Below, piece after piece: positions 7,279 through 50,057 of a stretch of DNA of 64,000 bases. This DNA comes from Dictyostelium discoideum (lineage: Eukaryota). Each line of letters starts with the position of its first letter. Within the stretch, counting starts at the first letter, position 1. The translations under genes and the position numbers were made by a program. Under the pieces are notes generated by a model, which worked only from the letters and a program-made list of their open reading frames with translations, searched no databases and was not told the origin of the DNA. The stretch covers positions 4,448,001 to 4,512,000 of the forward strand of contig CM000150.2 in NCBI GenBank assembly GCA_000004695.1, in the 5' to 3' direction.

Positions 7279-8370
7279 ATCAAGGTATTATTTTTATTGA
7301 ATACCCTAACGCAAAAGAATAGTTTTTTCCAATTACCCACTTAAATTTGTTAAAAAATTTAAAAATTATTATTAGTTGACATGCTCTGTAATATAAAATA
7401 AACTTATTTTTAAGTTAATACACTCATTTACATAAATAATTACCAAACCAACCATTAAACAAATAAAATAAATAAATATTTTTATTTTTCATTGGTCATT
7501 TTTTAAAACCCTATTATTAAATAGTTTATCAACTATTAGATTTTATGACGAGCTTGCGTGGTTATTTATTAGATTTTTTTTTTTTCCAAAAAAAAATAAA
7601 AAAAAAAACAACCACAAACCAAAAAAAAAAAAAAAAATAATAATAATAATTATAATAATAATAAAAATAATAATAATACTATTAAATGACAATAGGGGAA
7701 AAAAAAATATTGCAGTTATTGTTGTTTATTATTTATCTTTCACACCATCATTAAATTTTATGAAAAAAAAAATGAATAAAAATGATATAAATGGTCCTAT
7801 CGATAATTTTAAAAATTAAGTTTTTTTTTATCCTATTTTTCTATTTTAAGATAATTAGATAGAAAATGGTAAAAACGATTTTTTTTTTTTTTTTTTTTTA
7901 AAACAGTTTTTTTTTTTTTTTAAACTATTATTTAATCTTTCGTTTTATTAAAAAAACAATATTAATTGGATAAATAATTATATAATTACAATGCATTATT
8001 ATAAAATTAAAGTTTTAAAAACTAAAAAATAGTAGTAAAATAAAAATAATAATGATGCTAAAGAAAGAGAAAAAAAAAAAAAAAAAGCATTTATTAAAAT
8101 TTGAGATGTTATAATATCGAACAATCAAAAAAAAAAAATTTTAATTTAATTAAAGGAATTCTAAATTTCCTTCTTAAAAAAATAGAGTTTAAAAGGAATT
8201 CTAAATTTCCTTTTTAAAAAAAAGTAAATTTGGAAAAAAAAAAATATATATAATAGGTATATTTTTATTTTTATTTTTTTTATTTTTTTATTTTTTTATT
8301 TTTTTTTTATTTTTTTTAAAAAAAAAAAAAAAAATTTTGAAATTTAATATAAAATAAAAAAAACAACACG

Positions 8371-38596: not shown

Positions 38597-41500
38597 TTAT
38601 CTTCTTGGTTTTCTTGTTATATAAACAAATGTAATAACCATAAGAGTATTAAATATCCAGAAACAAATAATAAGAGCTAAATTTCTCCATCTATTATCAA
38701 ATGACCAACCAAGTGTATTATAATATTCTTCACCATTGTTGTAAAGACAATAACCACATTTACTTTCATCACCTTCATTTATTGCTTCAACATAACCTGT
38801 TAATGGTTCTGAAATTGGGAAATATTGTTTACATGTCACACCATTTACAGCTTCTGGATTTGTAAAATGAGTGAAATCTTCTGATGTACACTTTACATCG
38901 GTATGTTTTAATACATTTGTAACAATACCTTCCATAAAGTAACGACATGGGTTTAAATGATACACCCATCCTCTCCAAAAGGTTGGAATTGACGATGGTA
39001 TTACCATTACTCCACAGAAAAGAAATAGGAAAACAATTAACAATGGAATGAGTGTATGTGCTAAAAACATGTTGAAACAAATTGCAGCTACAGCTTGACC
39101 GAAACTAACACAGAAATAGAGGAATAAAATGAAAATGAACCAAAAATAAAAATTAATATCATTGTATTCCGTATTTAAACCAGCTGTCCAAAAAGAGCAA
39201 AAGAAGAAAATTGTACCTGAAACTGTAATGAATGGTAATTCTACAACCACAATGGAAATTGCAAATGGGAACCAAGAATAAAATTTCGAAGCAAAATCTC
39301 TTTTAAAGTATTCTTTTTGCATAATGAATTGTGGAAGTACAACGAAAATTAATAAGATTCCAAGAATGAGTGCTTCAAAAATAAAGAATACACGTTGATT
39401 CATATCTGAACTTGATCCTTGTAATGACCAAAAAGTAAAACCAATAATTAAACCTGCAAGAGCTGATTGAATGAATGAACCATACGTATAGAATGGATCT
39501 CTCCACCAAATTAAATTTAAACGTTTATAAACTTCAATAGTTTGATACCATACTGATGTTGCAAATTCTCTAGGTTTACCATGGTCCTCGGTTGATGATG
39601 GTCCTGCTGCTTCCAATGCTGCTAATTCACGCTCAATCTCTTGTAATTCTGGTGATTGTTTCCAAGTTTCTGGCCAATTAACATCACTTTTACCATGTAC
39701 ACCTGCACCAGTTGCTTCTAAAATATATTCTGCTGGATTTTCACTTTCAGTACATGGACGAACACCATATCTTTCGAAATAAGATGTTAAAGTTTTTGAT
39801 CTTTCACCAATATCACCAAAGTAAACAGTTTTACCACCTTTTGCTAATAAAAGAATACGATCAAAATGTTCAAATAATACTGAAGAAGGTTGATGAATTG
39901 TACAAACTAATGGCATACCAGCATCTGCTAATTTACGAATAAATTTAACAATGTTATATGATGATTGAGCATCTAAACCTGATGTTGGTTCATCAAGGAA
40001 AAGAATATGTGGTTTTGCAACCAATTCTACACCAATTGTTAATCTTTTTCTTTCTTCAACGGAAATACCAACACCAGTTTCTAATGTACCAATTAAAGCA
40101 TCACCTAAATGTTTCATTTCCATCATTTCTAAAACATGTTCAACATAATCAAACTTTTCTTCTAATGAAACTGAAGGTTCTTGACGTAACTTTGCAGAGA
40201 AACGTAATGCTTCTCTTACGGTTAAACCTGGATTATGAACATCCATTTGTTCTACATAACCGGTAATACGTTCAAAATCAATTTCTAATGGTTTACCATT
40301 AAGGAAACATTTACCTTGAACTTCACCCATTGTTTTTCTTTTTGCTAATACATCGAGTAATGTTGTTTTACCAGCACCTGATGAACCCATTAATGCTGTC
40401 ATTTGACCTGGTTTAATCCAACCTTCAACATTATCTAATAGTAATCTTTTTCCACCTTTTACTGGTACAGTATAATTAATATTTTGCCAAGTGAAAATAC
40501 CACCTCTCATTTTTAAAGTATCTTTCATTTTACTTGTAGCATTTGCAACTATTTGATTTTGTTTCTTTTCTTCCTCAGCATCATTCATTTTTGGAGCTTT
40601 ACCTTTTTTATAAACTTTATGACTATAACCTCCACCAGTCCAATCGAAATATTCCATTGCAAACATATTCATAGCGGTAAATAGTACCCACCAAAGATAA
40701 GTGATGAAAACATTTTGAGTAAGATCATCTGATCTAAAGTGTAAATACTGATCCAAATAATCTTTACCTTCAACACTTAAAATACCTTCAACAGCACCAG
40801 GCGATGCACAAACTCTATAATCATTGTCGTATCTTGTAGGATTTTTTGGATCAAATGGAATTGCTGTATCATGACAATCAAATGATAAATCACCAAATTC
40901 ATTTGCCATAAGTGCTTTAAAAGCATAACTGAACGGATTTGCCCAATAAAACCAAGCAAACCATGGATGCATTTTTGGTTTTGGAATTGTATAACCACAA
41001 TATGTAATCATAAAGATAAGAATTACATTCATTACATTTTGACTAATGTAAAGTGATGGTGAGAAATTACCAAAGACACGGAAAAGATTTGTTGTTGCCA
41101 ATGTTGCACCTACTAATGTAAAACAGAAAATAAAGAATTTCCCAGCATTATATTGTAAACCAAACATAAAGTAAACTACAATTGAGAATAAAAATACTTG
41201 TATCATCGTTAAGGGTATATCAGTTACAATTTGTGCAATATGTAAAGCTGATGGACGATACATAGCGTAAGAACGTTGCTTTTGTAAAATACGACGACCA
41301 TACATAGTAAGTGGTAGTTCGGCTTCACTAAGGAAAGCATTGAATAGAATAGCTGAAAATATAGCACCACCTCTTGTAAATAAACCAGGAATTGTTTTTT
41401 CCATTTGAAAGAAAATTGAACCATAAACAAATGATTGAGTAAATACTGAAAGATAACGTGAAATCAATGAGAATTTATCACCCCAAATAATTTGAGAATT

Positions 41501-43085
41501 TCTAACGATTAATGCTTTGACTTGAGTTATATATGAAGTTGTATAAATTGATCTCTTTGGTGTAGTTCTACTTTTTTCAGCTTTAACTTCTTGAATGAAA
41601 TCAACTGCTGGTTGTTCAATTTCAATCTTTCTTTCATATTCTTTTTGTTCCTCTAACATATCTCTATACATTGAAGAGTTTCTCCAAGCAGCTTCAAAAT
41701 CGGCAGAAGTTTCTGGAACACGACCTTCAAATCCTTGTCTAATAATACGTTCTTGTGGATTTGTAACACCTGTCAAAAAATCTGGTGTTGATTTTCTTGG
41801 TTCGCAATCGAATCCTAAATCTATAAAATATTGTTTTGCTTTATTGCCAGGTCCAAAATAAATTAATCTACCTTTTTCAATGATTGCGACATTATCAAAT
41901 AAATTATAGATTGAATCTGATGCTTGATAAAATGATGCGATTGTTGTCTTATCTAATGTATCTGACATGATACGAATTGATTTTGCATAATCTAATGCAC
42001 TTGCTGCATCAAGACCACGAGTTGAACAATCATAACATGTAATTGATGCTGATGATACCATTGCTTCTGTAATTGTTAATCTTTTACGTTCACCACCTGA
42101 TAAACCTCTAATAAATTCATTACCAACAATCTTAAAAAAAAAAATAATTAATATCAATTAATAAATTAATTTTATTAAAAACTAAATACTTACAGTATCA
42201 GCTTGATGAACAATACCAAACATTCCTAATAATAAATCAAATATTTTTTGTCTATATGTACGTTTCTTTTCATCTGGCAAACGATTATGAATTGTTTTGC
42301 ATTTTAATGCGAAATCTAAAGTCTGACGAACTGTTAAAGTTGGATGATGAGTATCCTCTTCTGGTGTATAAATTGATTCACCTTGATAACGTTTCCATTC
42401 TTTCGCTGGGATACCACCATATTTAATATCACCTTTAACTTCAACATATGATCCTCTTTGATTTGATATTAAACGCAATAATGTCTATTGTAGTGAAAAT
42501 AAACATTATTAATATTATTTCTAAAAAATATATAAACACATATAAATTTATAATATTTACCGAACAACCAGAACCAGGACGACCTAATACTAATAACATT
42601 CCACCATCTCTATTGAATAAAGTAATATCATGAAGAATATCAAAAGTACTACCTTTCTCTTTCCAAGTTGATGGTTTAAACAAATTGAAAAAACTAATGA
42701 ATGGAGTTGACATATCGGCAATGACGGATTGATCAGCACCTCTACCAACAACTGTTAAATTTCTAATTGAAACACCCATTTTCTTTGGTTTTTGACCATT
42801 TCCTAATGCCATACGTTGAGAATTTTCAAAGTATCTTCTTAATTTAAAATCTTCATCATTTTCATCATGATTATTTTCAGCATCATGACCTGCCAAATAT
42901 TGTTTTGAATCGATTTCCAATTCTCTTTCGACATTTTTAAATTGATTTTCACTCTTTTGAATATCTGGTGAATCTGGTGGTGATGATCCATCACCAACAG
43001 GATTATCATAATTTGGAGGTGTATTAATATCTAAATTACTCCCACCTTCTTGAAGAGCAATTTCTCTTAATTCATATTCTTCCAT
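38597..43085 (-). CDS. Full-size ABC transporter, G subfamily / PDR type (NBD-TMD-NBD-TMD), copy 1. Exons: 43085..42561 (ATG at 43085, phase 0 end), 42484..42194, 42130..38597 (stop included). Introns: 42560..42485 (GTAAAT...CAATAG) and 42193..42131 (GTAAGT...TTTAAG). 1449 aa.
   Basis: Exon 1 ends ...[11 protein letters not shown] then gtaaat. This is the PDR-type degenerate Walker A with Cys in place of Lys. Exon 2 reads [30 protein letters not shown]...GIVHQADT then gtaagt. Exon 3 begins [24 protein letters not shown] (ABC signature), continues through TMD1, NBD2 ([53 protein letters not shown]) and TMD2 with PDR-like extracellular Cys motifs. The listed ORFs 42441..43085, 42182..42478 and 38597..42157 are the three exons. 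Their M starts at 42478 and 42157 are alternative-start artifacts of the ORF caller. Confidence 0.85.
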
Positions 43086-43751
43086 TATATTTGTATATAT
43101 GGAAAAATAATGAATTTAAATTTAATCTTTATTTTTTTTTTTTCTTAAATTTATAAAAAAAAAAAAAAAATATAATTAAAATACAGAGATATATAAATAA
43201 TAATATAATAAATACAGAGATATATAAATAATAAAAAAAAAAAAAAAAAAAGTTAGTATTTAAATTTTTAAACAGAAAAAAAATAAAAAAATAAAAAAAT
43301 AAAATTAATTAAATATTAAAATTTAGATTAACAATGTTGTTATATATAAACATAAATCGAAATTTTGTTTTTAAGTGATGCAATTTAGCGAAGTAAAGAA
43401 TCATATTATTTTTTTTATTAAAAAAATGGGGTGTATTTGTGTGGGTAAAGAATAAATTAGAACAATAAGAATGTGGGGGTAATGGTGTTAAAAAGCAAAT
43501 TATATTTTTATTATTTTTATTATTTTTATTTTTATTTTTATTATTATTATTTATATTATTTTTATTACTATTATTGTTGCAATTAAAAAAATAAAAATAA
43601 AATTGTATAGATAATTTTACATTTAATTGACTTTTAATTTTACTTTAATCCAAAAATATTTTAATTTTACTTTAATCCAAAAATATTTTAGAATAATTAA
43701 TTATATGTATATATTAAATTTAATTTAATGAAAAAAAAAAAAAAAAAAAAA

Positions 43752-43990
43752 AAAAAAAGATAAAGTAAAATAATTTATAGTAATTTTATTTTTCTAAAAA
43801 AAAAAAAAAAGATTAAAAATGAAAATTCGAAAAAATTATTAATATATTATAAATATTTTTTTTATTTATATGATTAATGTTGGCGCATTCAATCGTTCAA
43901 AAACTAATCTAAAAGTCCAAATTTGGTTCGGAAAAGTCCCTATTTTAATAAACAATCAAAAATCCACTTTTAGAAATTTATTTTAAAATG
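43752..43990. repeat. Left arm of a roughly 240-bp inverted repeat. Partner is at 44689-44925.
   Basis: The reverse complement of 43865-43990 (cattttaaaataaatttctaaaagtggatttttgattgtttattaaaatagggacttttccgaaccaaatttggacttttagattagtttttgaacgattgaatgcgccaacattaatcatataaa) matches 44689-44815 (cattttaaaataaatttctaaaaatggattttgattgtttattaaaatagggacttttccaaaacaaaatttggacttttatattaacttttgaaagattgaatacaccaacattaatcatataaa) at about 90%. The similarity continues outward (atatattaataattttttcgaattttc versus atatattaataattttttggaattttc, and aaattactataaat...attttact on both sides). Confidence 0.8.
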
Positions 43991-44586
43991 TTGTAATGAG
44001 ATGGTTTTTTTAAAAAAAATAAAATAAATAATTAAAATTAATTGGAAATCGCTATCAAGATGTCATTTAGAAGCTTTTTTTTTCAGATCCAAAATTAATT
44101 TAATTAAAAATATTTAAAAAAAAAATAAAAAAAAATAAAAAAAAATTAAAAAAAAAAAAATAAAAAAGAAAAAATAAAAAATAATAAAAAAAAAAATTAA
44201 AAAAAAATAAAATTAAAAATAATAAAATTAAATTTAATAAAATTTGGAAAAACGATGTTGCAATAGATGAGGCTCATTAATGACACTATAACCTTATTCC
44301 AAAAAATAAATAACCCCACAGTTATTTTTTTGTATTTTTTTTTTTTTTTTTTATTTTAAAATTGAATCATAAAATATTATTTAGAACCATTCTGAATAAT
44401 TCTTTTTTATTTGAATACCTGGTGTTTAAGAAAAAAAATAAAAAAAAATAAAAAAAAAAGTAAAATGGGAAAATAATTTGATTGGAAAAAAAAAAAATAA
44501 AAAAATTTAATAAAAAGGTTATTTTTTTTTTATTGTTATTTAATATTTTTATTAATTTTATTTTTTATATTATTATTATTATTATT

Positions 44587-44680
44587 TTTTCCATCTGTTT
44601 TCAAATGACCAACCAAGTGTATACTGTGGTGAAGAATATTATAATCCCCATTGTTGTAAGACAATAACCACATCTCATTA
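44587..44680 (-). pseudogene. About 95-bp degenerate fragment of the 3' terminal exon of an abcG/PDR gene. It corresponds to the ...RWRNLA.. region near the stop and abuts the right inverted-repeat arm.
   Basis: ccatctgttttcaaatgaccaaccaagtgtat...ccccattgttgtaagacaataaccacat matches copy 1 at 38690-38770 (ccatctattatcaaatgaccaaccaagtgtattataatattcttcaccattgttgtaaagacaataaccacat). A 20-nt internal segment is inverted (gtggtgaagaatattataat). There is no open frame and the rest of the gene is absent. Confidence 0.6.
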
Positions 44681-44688
44681 GGACATTT

Positions 44689-44925
44689 TAAAATAAATTT
44701 CTAAAAATGGATTTTGATTGTTTATTAAAATAGGGACTTTTCCAAAACAAAATTTGGACTTTTATATTAACTTTTGAAAGATTGAATACACCAACATTAA
44801 TCATATAAATAAAAAAAAAAAAAAAAAATCTGAAATATATTAATAATTTTTTGGAATTTTCTTTTTTGATCTTTTTTTTATATTTTAAAATTAAATTACT
44901 ATAAATATTTTACTAATTTTTAAAG
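44689..44925. repeat. Right arm of the roughly 240-bp inverted repeat. Partner is at 43752-43990.
   Basis: See the left-arm evidence. The arms face each other across a spacer of about 700 bp that is mostly A/T homopolymers, plus the abcG fragment. Confidence 0.8.
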
Positions 44926-45231
44926 GTCAATAAAATGATTAATAGGTACCTTATTACATAATTATATTTCAAATTGTTCTACTAAAATGACATATGGCGT
45001 TGATGATTAATAAAAACTTCAATTATTTTCGAACATCATTCCAACAAATCATTTTTATAGTAGGAATTTTGAAAAAAAAAAAAAATAATAAACAATAAAC
45101 AATAAACAATAAAATTAATATATTTTTTTTTATTGTTAAATATTATTATTAATTTTATTTTATTGTTTATAATTATTATTTATTTATTTATTTTTTATTT
45201 ATTTTTTATTTATTTTTTTTTGGTTGAGATT

Positions 45232-48200
45232 TTATCTTCTTGGTTTTCTTGTTATATAAACAAATGTAATAACCATAAGAATATTAAATATCCAGAAACA
45301 TATTAAAATAGCTAAATTTCTCCATCTATTATCAAATGACCAACCAAGTGTATTATAATATTCTTCACCATTGTTGTAAAGACAATAACCACATTTACTT
45401 TCATCACCTTCATTTATTGCTTCAACATAACCTGTTAATGGTTCTGAAATTGGGAAATATTGTTTACATGTTACACCATTTACAGCTTCTGGATTTGTAA
45501 AATGAGTAAAATCTTCTGATGTACACTTTACATCGGTATGTTTTAATACATTTGTAACAATACCTTCCATAAAGTAACGACATGGGTTTAAATGATACAC
45601 CCATCCTCTCCAAAAGGTTGGAATTGACGATGGTATTACCATTACTCCACAGAAAAGAAATAGGAAAACAATTAACAATGGAATGAGTGTATGAGCTAAA
45701 AACTAAATTTTTTTTTTTTTTTTAAATGATTAATATTAATTTTTTTTTTTTTTTTTTTTTAATAAATAAAATGAGTCTTACCAAATTAAAACTAATTGCA
45801 GATACTGCTTGACCAAAGCTAACACAAAATAAAAGACTATAAAAAAATTTATAAAGATATCTAATTAGTAATTTCCTTTTTTTTTTTTTTTTTTTTTAAC
45901 AACCTACTATAAAATTAAAATAAACCAAAAATAAAAATTGATTTCATTAAATTTAGTATATAAACCAGCTGTCCAAAAAGAACAAAAGAAAAAAAAAGTA
46001 CCAGATATTATTACAATTGGTATCTCCACTGCAACTATTGAAATTGCAAATGGAAACCAAGAATAAAATTTTGATGCAAAATCTCTCTTAAAGTATTCCT
46101 GTTGCATAATGAATTGTGGAAGTACAACGAAAATTAACAAAATTCCAAGAATGAGTGTTTCGAAAATAAAGAATACACGTTGACTCATATCTGAACTTGA
46201 TCCTTTTAATGACCAAAAAGTAAAACCCATTATCAAACCTGCCATTGAAGCTTGAATGAATGAACCATACGTATAGAATGGATCTCTCCACCAAATTATA
46301 TTTAAACGTTTATAAACTTCAATAGTTTGATACCATATTGGTGTTGCAAATTCTCTTGGTTTACCATGGTCTTCAGTCGATGATGGTCCTTGTGCTTCCA
46401 ATGCTGCTAATTCACGCTCAATCTCTTGTAATTCTGGTGATTGTTTCCAAGTTTCTGACCAATTAACATCACTTTTACCATGTACACCTGCACCAGTTGC
46501 TTCTAAAATATATTCTGCTGGATTTTCACTTTCAGTACATGGACGAACACCATATCTTTCGAAATAAGATGTTAAAGTTTTTGACCCTTCACCAATATCA
46601 CCAAAATAAACAGTTTTACCACCTTTTGCTAATAAAAGAATACGATCAAAATGTTCAAATAATACTGAAGAAGGTTGATGAATTGTACAAACTAATGGCA
46701 TACCAGCATCTGCTAATTTACGAATAAATTTAACAATGTTATATGATGATTGAGCATCTAAACCTGATGTTGGTTCATCAAGGAAAAGAATATGTGGTTT
46801 TGCAACCAATTCTACACCAATTGTTAATCTTTTTCTTTCTTCAACGGAAATACCAACACCAGTTTCTAATGTACCAATTAAAGCATCACCTAAATGTTTC
46901 ATTTCCATCATTTCTAAAACATGTTCAACATAATCAAACTTTTCTTCTAATAAAACTGAAGGTTCTTGACGTAATTTTGCAGAGAAACGTAATGCTTCTC
47001 TCACGGTTAAACCTGGATTATGAACATCCATTTGTTCTACATAACCGGTAATACGTTCAAAATCAATTTCTAATGGTTTACCATTAAGGAAACATTTACC
47101 TTGAACTTCACCCATTGTTTTTCTTTTTGCTAATACATCGAGTAATGTTGTTTTACCAGCACCTGATGAACCCATTAATGCTGTCATTTGACCTGGTTTA
47201 ATCCAACCTTCAACATTATCTAATAGTAATCTTTTTCCACCTTTTACTGGTACAGTATAATTAATATTTTGCCAAGTGAAAATACCACCTCTCATTTTTA
47301 AAGTATCTTTCATTTTACTTGTAGCATTTGCAACTATTTGATTTTGTTTCTTTTCTTCCTCAACATCATTCATTTTTGGAGCTTTACCTTTTTTATAAAC
47401 TTTATGACTATAACCTCCACCAGTCCAATCGAAATATTCCATTGCGAACATATTTAAAACAATGTAAAGTATCCACCAAAGATAAAGTATAAAAACATTT
47501 TGAGTAAGATCGTCTGATCTAAAGTGGAATGACTCTTCAATATATTTAGAACCTGATACTGTTAAATTTCCCATTGATGCACCAGGAGATGCACAAATTC
47601 TATAACTATTATCATATACTATAATTTTATTTGGATCAGATGGAATTGCTGTATCTTGACAATCGAATGATAAATCACCAAATTCATTTGCCATAAGTGC
47701 TTTAAATGCATAACTAAATGGATTACACCTATAAAAAAAGAAAAAAAAAAAAAAAAATTATTAATATATATTCCTTAAATTTTAATAAAATTATTTTAAT
47801 TAAAAAAACTTACCAATAAAACCAAGAAAACCATGGATGCATTTTTGGTTTTGGAATTGTATAACCAGTGTATGTAATCATAGAAATGATGAAGATATTC
47901 ATTACATTTTGACTAATGTAAAGTGATGGTGAGAAATTACCAAACATACGGAAAAGATTTGTTGTTGCCAATGTTGCACCTACTAATGTAAAACAGAAAA
48001 TGAAGAATTTTCCAGCATCGTATTGTAAACCAAACATAAAGTAAACCACAATTGAGAATAAGAATACTTGAATAATCGTTAAGGGTATATCAGTAACAAT
48101 TTGTGCAATATGTAAAGCTGATGGACGATACATAGCGTAAGAATGTTGCTTTTGTAAAATACCCCTTTGTCCGAAAGTTAAAGGCATTTCGCATTCGCAT

Positions 48201-50057
48201 AAAAGAGCATTGAATAGAATAACTGAAAAAAGAGTACCACCTCTTGTAAATAAACCATTAATATTTGTTTCTAAATTATAAAATATTGAGCCATAAACAA
48301 ATGATTGAGTAAATACTGATAGGTATCTAGAGCCTAATGATAATTTATCACCCCAAATAATTTGGAAATTTCTAACGATTAACGCTTTAACTTGAGTTAA
48401 AAATGAAGTTGTATAAATTGATCTCTTTGAAGTGGTTTTACTTTTTTCGGCTTTAACTTCTTGAATGAAATCAACTGCTGGTTGTTCAATTTCAATCTTT
48501 CTTTCATATTCTTTTTGTTCCTCTAACATATCTCTATACATTGAAGAGTTTCTCCAAGCAGCTTCGAAATCGGCGAAAGTTTCTGGAACACGACCTTCAA
48601 ATCCTTGTCTAATAATACGTTCTTGTGGATTTGTAACACCTGTCAAAAAATCTGGTGTTGACTTTCTTGGTTCACAATCGAATCCTAAATCTATAAAATA
48701 TTGTTTTGCTTTATTGCCAGGTCCAAAATAAATTAATCTACCTTTTTCAATGACTGCAACATTATCAAATAAATTATAAATTGAATCTGATGCTTGATAA
48801 AATGATGCAATTGTAGTCTTATCCAATGTATCTGACATGATTCGAATTGATTTTGCATAATCTAATGCACTTGCTGCATCAAGACCACGAGTTGAACAAT
48901 CATAACATGTAATTGATGCCGAAGATACCATTGCTTCTGTAATTGTTAATCTTTTACGTTCACCACCTGATAAACCTCTAATAAATTCATTACCAACAAT
49001 CTAAATAATTTTTAAATATTAAAAAATAATATCAATTAATAAATTAACCAATATTATTATTATTATTAAAAACTTACAGTATCAGCTTGATGAACAATAC
49101 CAAACATTCCTAATAATAAATCAAATATTCTTTTTCTATATGTACGCTTTTTTTCATCTGGTAAACGATTATGAATTGTTTTACATTTTAATGCGAAATC
49201 TAAAGTCTGACGAACTGTTAAAGTTGGATGATGAGTATCCTCTTCTGGTGTATAAATTGATTCACCTTGATAACGTTTCCATTCTTTTGCTGGAATACCA
49301 CCATATGTAATATCACCTTTAACTTCAACATATGATCCTCTTTGATTTGAAATTAAACGTAATAATGTCTATAAAATTAAAAAAAAAATTATTAATATTA
49401 TTTTTATTACTAAAAAAAAAAAAAAATTAAAAAAAAAAAATTAAAATAGTTTACCGAGCAACCAGAACCAGGACGACCTAATACTAATAACATTCCACCA
49501 TCTCTGTTGAATAAAGTAATATCATGAAGAATATCAAAAGTACTACCTTTCTCTTTCCAAGTTGATGGTTTAAATAAATTTAAAATTTTAAATATTGGTG
49601 TTGATAAATCTGAAATTACAGATTGATCAGCACCGACACCCACGACTGTTAAATTTCTAACTGAAACACCCATTTTCTTTGGTTTTTGACCATTACCTAT
49701 TTTTTAATAAATTTTAAAAATTAATATTTTTAAAAAAAAATAAAAAAATAATATAATATTAACCATCAACTCACCTAATGCCACACGTTGAGAATTTTCA
49801 AAATATTTTCTTAATTTAAAATCTTCATCATTTTCATTATGATTATTTTCAGCATCTAAATTTGATAAATATTGTTTTGAATCAGTTTCTAATTCATTGG
49901 CAATATATTTAAATTGATTTTCACTATTTTGGATATCTGGTGAATTTAATTGGAAATCATCACCAACCACACCAAAATTATTATTATTATTTGGTGTATT
50001 AATATTTAAATTTTCAACTTCCTGGAAAGAATACTCATTTAATTCAAATTCTTTCAT
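45232..50057 (-). CDS. Full-size ABCG/PDR transporter, copy 2, a tandem paralogue of copy 1. Seven exons: 50057..49775, 49696..49455, 49368..49078, 49000..47814, 47728..45908, 45836..45782, 45702..45232 (stop included). 1449 aa, the same length as copy 1.
   Basis: Donors and acceptors read off the sequence. (1) ...NSQRVALG then gtgagt...aaaaatag, then GT-AATGGTCAAAAACCAAAG, phase 1. (2) ...GRPGSGCS then gtaaac...ttttatag, then ACATTATTACGT ([11 protein letters not shown]...). (3) ...GIVHQADT then gtaagt...ttatttag, then ATTGTTGGTAATGAA. (4) ...[10 protein letters not shown] then gtaagt...ttttttatag, then G-TGTAATCCATTTAGT ([18 protein letters not shown]), phase 2. (5) ...[11 protein letters not shown] then gtaggt...ttttttatag, then T-CTTTTATTTTGTGTTAGC ([19 protein letters not shown]). 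(6) ...AATTTG then gtaaga...aaatttag, then TTTTTAGCTCATACACTC ([15 protein letters not shown]...). Exon lengths sum to 4350 nt, the same as copy 1. Exons 1+2 together equal copy-1 exon 1 (525 nt). The listed ORFs 49704..50057, 49410..49673, 47810..48931, 45907..47694 and 45232..45678 are exon pieces. Confidence 0.8.

Follow-up and report, generated by a model that had tools for sequence, protein, structure and literature searches.

How did a long inverted repeat come to lie between two neighbouring transporter genes of Dictyostelium discoideum, with a scrap of transporter exon just inside one of its arms, and does it serve any purpose there? The locus belongs to a 64-kb stretch of DNA of extreme A/T richness, referred to below as the window. 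Three readings had been offered in the original prediction: a MITE-like transposon, the scar of a lost third gene copy, and a palindromic structure that promoted duplication or conversion of the genes. From the analysis presented here, the structure is very likely a non-functional scar of a local rearrangement, and the explanation that fits best is template switching during replication at the abcG19/abcG21 tandem-duplication junction.

Both genes encode PDR-type ABC transporters and both lie on the minus strand. The downstream copy, gene A (38597-43085, minus strand), was delimited from open reading frames and tblastn and is abcG21, with 98-99% identity to AX4 abcG21 (query P0121), intron gaps included. 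The upstream copy, gene B (45232-50057, minus strand), was delimited by its stop codon at 45232-45234 and by tblastn and is abcG19. It matches AX4 abcG19 (query P0130) at 100% over residues 273-668, the tblastn blocks outside these residues being lower solely through intron gaps. By these matches the window comes from the AX4 reference strain or from one almost identical to it. The segment had been placed in a 2.1-kb gap between the tandem transporters, and this gap was measured at 2146 bp (43086-45231). Read along the minus strand, the order is abcG19, its 3'UTR, a segment termed X, an inverted arm, an abcG pseudo-exon, a 3'UTR-like tail (UTR'), a spacer (S), the left arm, the promoter of abcG21 and abcG21 itself. 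The latter gene is reported to be inducible by hyperosmotic stress (PMC1888708). No homology was found between the abcG19 upstream region and that of abcG21 in a search with a strict GC filter.

We examined the inverted repeat by gapped local alignment, which pairs the left arm (43764-44003, minus strand, 240 bp) with the reverse complement of the right arm (44671-44914, plus strand, 244 bp) at 214 of 249 positions (86%), or at 88% over gap-free columns. The predicted repeat is therefore real, while the positions first given for its arms (43752-43990 and 44689-44925, at about 90% identity) had to be shifted by 12-18 bp and the identity lowered. The alignment score of 322 compares with a mean of 38 and a maximum of 74 for the left arm against random chunks of the window. 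The non-low-complexity core at 43870-44003 scores 201 against the partner arm, whereas its best score at any other place in the window is 44. A 23-mer common to both arms occurs exactly twice in the window, with 0 occurrences expected. Scanning prokaryote-genome and metagenome collections, which contain no Dictyostelium, with this 23-mer gave 0 hits. In BLAST the arm pair has an E value of 1e-77 and ranks beside the match between the 3' ends of the two paralogues, the remaining matches in the region being low-complexity A/T only. Between the facing arms lie 667 bp with 14.7% GC, in agreement with the predicted A/T-homopolymer-rich spacer of about 700 bp. Since the inverted copy and its junction with the pseudo-exon are also present in two independent assemblies of other strains (ACTFIR and ACTFIY), the repeat is no assembly artefact.

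With its long inverted termini, its A/T-rich non-coding interior and a total length of about 1.15 kb, the segment superficially resembles a MITE, and D. discoideum does carry multicopy non-autonomous DNA elements, for example thug-S (PMC4894637, PMC6161686). Terminal inverted repeats of 240 and 244 bp alone are nevertheless not diagnostic. No target-site duplication was found at the ends of the unit, where the flanks (...AAGATAA on the left and AATTTTT... on the right) do not match, and no further copy of the arms was present in the window or in nine related loci of about 25 kb (about 290 kb together).

Adjoining the right arm is an 88-bp pseudo-exon (44586-44673, minus strand), recognised by homology to both genes. 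It is about 80% identical to 38682-38759 and to 45317-45394, lies in gene orientation and represents a 3' piece of the abcG terminal exon that is truncated at both ends. Its coding integrity is lost, and it carries indels in ACTFIY and ACTFIR. A micro-inversion of 19 bp at 44627-44645 (TGGTGAAGAATATTATAAT) matches 45352-45370 and 38717-38735 exactly when reverse-complemented, and its surroundings are locally palindromic (AATATTATAATATT). The predicted piece of the terminal exon at 44587-44680, with a small internal inversion, was thus recovered almost in place. The pseudo-exon continues into a low-complexity, 3'UTR-like tail, UTR' (44486-44585, minus strand), which is a direct repeat of the abcG19 3'UTR and is identical to 45074-45188 at 93 of 119 positions (78%). 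Its partner, the true abcG19 3'UTR, spans 45074-45231 (minus strand), as delimited by the abcG19 stop codon and the repeat alignment, and the motif AACCTTTTTATTAAAT is common to UTR' and the true UTR of ACTFIR. Exon tail and UTR are therefore present as a direct duplication, 45394-45317 with 45188-45074 in one copy and 44673-44586 with 44590-44486 in the other.

Segment X (44915-45073, no strand assigned), 159 bp with 22% GC, separates the abcG19 3'UTR from the outer end of the right arm. It is present only in the window lineage and is absent at the same position in ACTFIR and ACTFIY. It contains no ORF, and no homologue of it was found in the rest of the window or in the nine loci, whereas a size-matched control found its orthologues (BLAST of 44230-44388, in four of four D. 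discoideum-group loci). At the inner end of the right arm, the junction with the pseudo-exon reads on the minus strand ...AATGAGATG/TGGTTATTGTC..., with the slash at the junction, and is identical in the window, ACTFIR and ACTFIY. It bears a 3-bp ATG microhomology, which is weak evidence in A/T-rich DNA (left arm GAGATG/GTTTT, exon AAATG/TGGTT). On its outer side the right arm stops at a point equivalent to the border of the A28 tract next to the left arm, and the junction between UTR and right arm falls in low-complexity A/T sequence where it is not placeable to the base.

The history of these parts was followed in nine orthologous loci of about 25 kb, reached through proteins. A single abcG occupies the site in D. 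citrinum (two assemblies, L001 and L008) and D. dimigraforme (L007). The tandem pair is present in D. discoideum ACTFIW (L002) and ACTFIR (L004), in D. cf. discoideum ACTFIY (L003) and ACTFIZ (L005), and in D. firmibasis (L006). D. purpureum (L009) is a distant relative with different synteny, and its score of 50 against the arm core is borderline to the background maximum of 44. In all eight loci of the D. discoideum complex, which cover five species, a colinear counterpart of the left arm precedes the abcG21 orthologue, or the sole abcG gene, at 70-99% identity; the arm is ancestral sequence located 0.7-0.9 kb upstream of abcG21. Spacer S (44004-44485, minus strand), composed of A/T homopolymers and a few conserved unique blocks, is likewise ancestral intergenic DNA upstream of the left arm. 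It is colinear with ACTFIW, ACTFIY, ACTFIR and ACTFIZ, and with single-copy D. citrinum up to window position 44411.

The inverted copy, in contrast to the left arm, occurs only in the window, in ACTFIR (8059-8271 of that locus) and, truncated to about 105 bp, in ACTFIY (8130-8232). The other six of the eight related loci (ACTFIW, ACTFIZ, D. firmibasis and the single-copy loci) keep left arm and spacer without a right arm, and an empty site lacking the whole unit, as expected for a mobile element, was not observed among them. The identical junction between arm and pseudo-exon in the three carriers indicates that the inverted copy arose once. Searches with a strict GC filter detected no remnant of an inverted arm or of a pseudo-exon in D. 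firmibasis or ACTFIZ. As both of these have the tandem pair without the repeat, the repeat was not the driver of the tandem duplication, and the proposal of a palindrome that promoted duplication or conversion is not supported. The inverted repeat is a product of rearrangement. Its arms are 14% diverged and 667 bp apart, which makes it ill suited to events driven by cruciforms or hairpins; it does not have the near-identical arms and the spacer of tens of bp or less of fragile palindromes. Inverted repeats so spaced and diverged are essentially stable, as known from studies of inverted Alu repeats in yeast.

The carriers and their relatives differ in what has happened since. ACTFIR has the pseudo-exon in native orientation, so that the micro-inversion is specific to the window lineage, and its right arm nearly abuts the UTR. 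ACTFIY has a longer pseudo-exon, which runs through the stop-codon region and includes the post-stop motif AATCTCAA; this shows that the fragment is a true 3' end of a gene, with a UTR of its own. In ACTFIW the abcG19 stop codon is directly followed by TTTGACAATACAGATGG, a 17-bp pseudo-exon tail identical to that of ACTFIR. This retained tail shows that the short form arose later, when about 450 bp were deleted at an AAT microhomology, and the missing part comprises the right arm and the pseudo-exon only. Such losses in ACTFIW and ACTFIY mark the locus as deletion-prone. Both the micro-inversion and the microhomology-bearing deletions are in keeping with minor replication or repair errors of a single class. 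The simple UTR-to-spacer junction of ACTFIZ could be ancestral or could result from a clean loss through recombination between UTR and UTR'. In D. firmibasis, likewise, the inverted copy may never have been present or may have been lost cleanly via the same UTR/UTR' recombination.

The two arms have evolved at very different rates. Between the window and ACTFIR or ACTFIW, the left-arm bin is 98.7-98.8% identical (1.2-1.3% divergence), compared with 2-5% divergence for exons and for the whole locus including exons, and with 9-14% (86-91% identity) for A/T-rich intergenic bins. The right-arm bins of the window and ACTFIR are 85-90% identical (10-15% divergence), with values in ACTFIW and ACTFIY that are lower but come from poor alignments. 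A direct comparison of window and ACTFIR gave 99% identity for the left arms and 88-90% for the right arms. As the left arm diverges by about 1%, below the exons, the original copy is under purifying selection. The right arm drifts like neutral intergenic DNA, and the arms carry no sign of concerted evolution as judged from these alignments. Local hypermutation and arm-to-arm gene conversion were considered and dropped, since the locus-wide profile puts the right arm at the neutral intergenic rate.

The same differences bear on the age of the copy. At 8 of the 13 fixed differences between left and right arm, the right arm carries the outgroup state, which indicates that the duplication is old. 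Left and right arm differ by about 12-13%, roughly double the divergence that the right arm has accumulated per lineage between strains. From this we infer a duplication older than the split of AX4 and ACTFIR, consistent with its presence in ACTFIY.

The constrained sequence is concentrated in a left-arm core of about 140 bp (about 43865-44003, 26% GC) that is conserved in five Dictyostelium species and is probably a cis-regulatory module of abcG21. Coding explanations were rejected. A 38-codon ORF at 43872-43988 in the left arm has orthologues with indels of 1, 2 and 15-17 nt, and as left-arm indels are not multiples of 3 this ORF is not a gene. Neither a tRNA nor an Rfam match (E <= 1) turned up when the region was scanned, so that the predicted lack of coding capacity in the segment was borne out. 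A conserved RNA structure in the core was also rejected on both strands, with RNAalifold energies of -3.9 and -7.7 kcal/mol and 0 and 2 pairs changed on both sides.

Directly observed are the anatomy of the segment, the ancestry of left arm and spacer, the one junction common to the carriers, the later deletions and the unequal rates of the two arms. The simplest origin for this arrangement is one replication-based event with two template switches, of the FoSTeS/MMBIR type, a mechanism that we deduce from its product. The nascent strand would have copied abcG19 and its UTR and then jumped to the opposite strand at the A28 tract by the upstream element of abcG21, copying about 240 bp of this element backwards. 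On reaching the inner end of the element it would have returned, via the ATG microhomology, to the abcG terminal exon, which lies about 0.9 kb back. Resumption of normal copying from there would yield a direct duplicate of exon tail and UTR, an inverted upstream element and a single-copy spacer. Two features of the segment are those of such an event: the inverted piece comes from a nearby template, its source lying 0.67 kb away, and a direct duplication extends between the switch points, of which ACTFIY keeps the intervening stop region. The event would have occurred once, before the sampled strains of D. discoideum and D. cf. discoideum ACTFIY split. Since then, the original element would have remained under purifying selection while the inverted copy, a decaying version of the left arm, and the pseudo-exon joined to its inner end drifted neutrally. 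Micro-inversion, insertion of X and loss of the exon tail followed in the lineage of AX4; ACTFIY lost the outer arm, and ACTFIW about 450 bp by deletion.

An improbable alternative is that the segment is the remnant of a complete third abcG. After a triplication, the arm, the promoter and the body of the middle gene would have been turned round by an inversion that broke in the terminal exon and where spacer and arm meet, and later deletions would have spared only the inverted arm, the exon tail and its UTR. The pseudo-exon with its own UTR-like tail, extending through the stop region in ACTFIY, does look like a real gene end, the arm is oriented as such an inversion predicts, with its inner end against the exon, and deletions are clearly frequent at this locus. 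The route requires, however, three or more separate events where template switching needs one, and beyond the right arm none of the three carriers shows any trace of an inverted promoter or of abcG 5' sequence. Segment X does not resemble inverted promoter or abcG 5' sequence, the arm of ACTFIR leaves almost no room next to the UTR, and the homology stops at the A28 tract, a plausible switch site. Template switching is preferred because of the number of events otherwise needed and because no inverted promoter or 5' sequence is left, and a duplication of exon tail and UTR alone takes fewer steps than a complete third gene. From the predicted scar of a lost third copy we therefore retain the rearrangement scar, with an abcG 3' end and its own 3'UTR-like tail; a full third gene is not required.

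Could the repeat, whatever its origin, have acquired a function? Read-through from abcG19 would then yield a hairpin RNA whose stem is about 240 bp long, the source of small RNAs acting on the abcG21 upstream element, or the copied module would act on abcG19. The duplicated sequence is a constrained and probably regulatory element, and Dicer-dependent hairpin small RNAs are known in Dictyostelium (PMC6161686). If both arms were in one transcript they would pair extensively: folded as one RNA, 212-215 of 240 positions pair, with a minimum free energy of -311 kcal/mol versus -151 +/- 5 for shuffles. Against this, the right arm decays at the neutral rate without concerted evolution of the arms, at least two lineages have lost or shortened it, and it is missing from other genomes with the tandem pair. 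Moreover, none of 24 published mature miRNAs (PMC6161686, Table S1, a set that does not include those derived from thug-S) maps to the window at up to 2 mismatches. We consider such a function highly unlikely, and the neutral-looking decay together with the repeated loss suggests that the inverted repeat is without function. Were it real, hairpin small RNAs would amount to a strain-polymorphic, self-generated cross-regulation between two recent paralogues, or the copied module could instead serve as a downstream enhancer for abcG19.

Insertion between the genes of a MITE-like non-autonomous DNA transposon with terminal inverted repeats of about 240 bp, possibly related to thug, is an extremely improbable reading and the prediction to this effect is refuted, since one arm and the whole interior are ancestral, syntenic host sequence and only the other arm varies; the left terminus and the interior stand without the right terminus at the orthologous site in six loci, single-gene species included, the right terminus is fused to a piece of an abcG exon, and the termini evolve at rates that differ roughly tenfold.

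Such a probable template-switch scar has some bearing beyond the locus. In a single genome it is a MITE look-alike that consists of host sequence copied in place, which calls for caution in the annotation of repeats in A/T-rich genomes. Taken together, the strains document on a small scale the natural history of a complex duplication junction that had one origin and then underwent independent micro-inversion, insertion and deletions. They also add to the evidence that the abcG19/abcG21 pair is structurally dynamic, with mosaic paralogues and strain-specific indels. As a by-product, the comparison points to some 140 bp of conserved non-coding sequence ahead of the stress-inducible abcG21 as a candidate regulatory module. 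The structure itself is of a well-known kind and leaves the current understanding of genome rearrangement unchanged.

FoSTeS/MMBIR junctions of the types DUP-INV and DUP-TRP/INV-DUP have been described in human genomic disorders and in yeast. As in those junctions, nearby sequence is found inverted at the boundary of a tandem duplication, with templates within about 1 kb, and a direct flanking duplication, here of exon tail and UTR, lies beside the inverted piece; the 3-bp microhomology at the one placeable junction is weak evidence in A/T-rich DNA. Unlike those cases, the present one is ancient and fixed and is seen as a diverged product, with 14% divergence between the arms; breakpoint-associated point mutations are inseparable from later drift, and one junction lies in low-complexity A/T sequence. 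The 88-bp untranslatable abcG exon piece with its UTR-like tail also recalls the truncated gene relics found between tandem paralogues, and longer and shorter versions of it exist in other strains. It differs from such relics in being fused to inverted non-coding upstream DNA and in its 19-bp micro-inversion, and it may never have belonged to a full gene.

MITEs and thug-type elements share with the segment a non-coding, A/T-rich unit of about 1.15 kb with long inverted repeats at its ends. Unlike them, it has no target-site duplication, is undispersed in the examined sequence, has ends with different histories and has not moved as a unit, one end and the interior being ancestral host sequence. 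Finally, the segment resembles hpRNA and other inverted-repeat siRNA loci in its long imperfect inverted repeat, which would form an extended duplex if transcribed. It differs from them in that its second arm is not conserved and that none of the published miRNAs tested maps to the window.

The upstream region of abcG21 contains a conserved non-coding block of about 140 bp (window 43865-44003), located 0.8-0.9 kb upstream of the gene, whose conservation spans five Dictyostelium species, with orthologues found for example in D. citrinum (L001 9041-9205), D. firmibasis (L006 15697-15860) and D. dimigraforme (L007 8955-9125). Between D. discoideum strains the identity of this block is about 99%, which is higher than that of the adjacent exons (95-98%). 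An RNA structure or RNA family was looked for in the block and none was detected. The block is likely a cis-regulatory module.

The A/T-rich spacer between the two arms of the inverted repeat presents two more unique blocks, at 44243-44297 and 44040-44075 (GGAAAAACGATGTTGCAATAGATGAGGCTCATTAATGACACTATAACCTTATTCC and GGAAATCGCTATCAAGATGTCATTTAGAAGC, respectively), that show almost no variation across strains of the D. discoideum group and may constitute extra regulatory elements. A 27-bp perfect tandem duplication (TTTTAATTTTACTTTAATCCAAAAATA x2) was also observed upstream of abcG21, at 43632-43685, between the gene and the left arm.

A single abcG gene is present at the locus in D. citrinum (L001 and L008) and D. 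dimigraforme (L007), whereas D. discoideum and D. cf. discoideum (L002-L005) carry a tandem pair, as does the more divergent D. firmibasis (L006). This distribution implies independent duplications or losses. In the window, the two paralogues, abcG21 (38597-43085) and abcG19 (45232-50057), are mosaics. Residues 1-176 of the database protein 'AbcG13' (Q8T680) match abcG21 at 98.9%, while its residues 273-668 match abcG19 at 100%, and between abcG21 and abcG19 the N-terminal exons, with an identity of about 74-80%, are far more diverged than the remainder. This mosaic pattern suggests either an old duplication with gene conversion homogenising the copies, or a chimeric database entry.

At the junction of the pseudo-exon, an abcG terminal-exon fragment, with its 3'UTR-like tail lies an (AAT)n microsatellite, which is expanded to about 27 units in the D. 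discoideum loci L004 (8373-8455) and L002 (14982-15065), compared to only about 5 in the window (44571-44586). Segment X (window 44915-45073), of 159 bp and 22% GC and without ORF, is confined to the window lineage in the comparison of the window with nine related loci, and no source for it was detectable in any of these sequences. It may be filler DNA, taken from another site of the genome in a second repair event.

Over the 15-kb locus, L002 (ACTFIW) and L004 (ACTFIR), both labelled D. discoideum, differ by 2-5% from the AX4-like window, exons included. This divergence is high for a within-species comparison and may result from deep strain structure or cryptic species.
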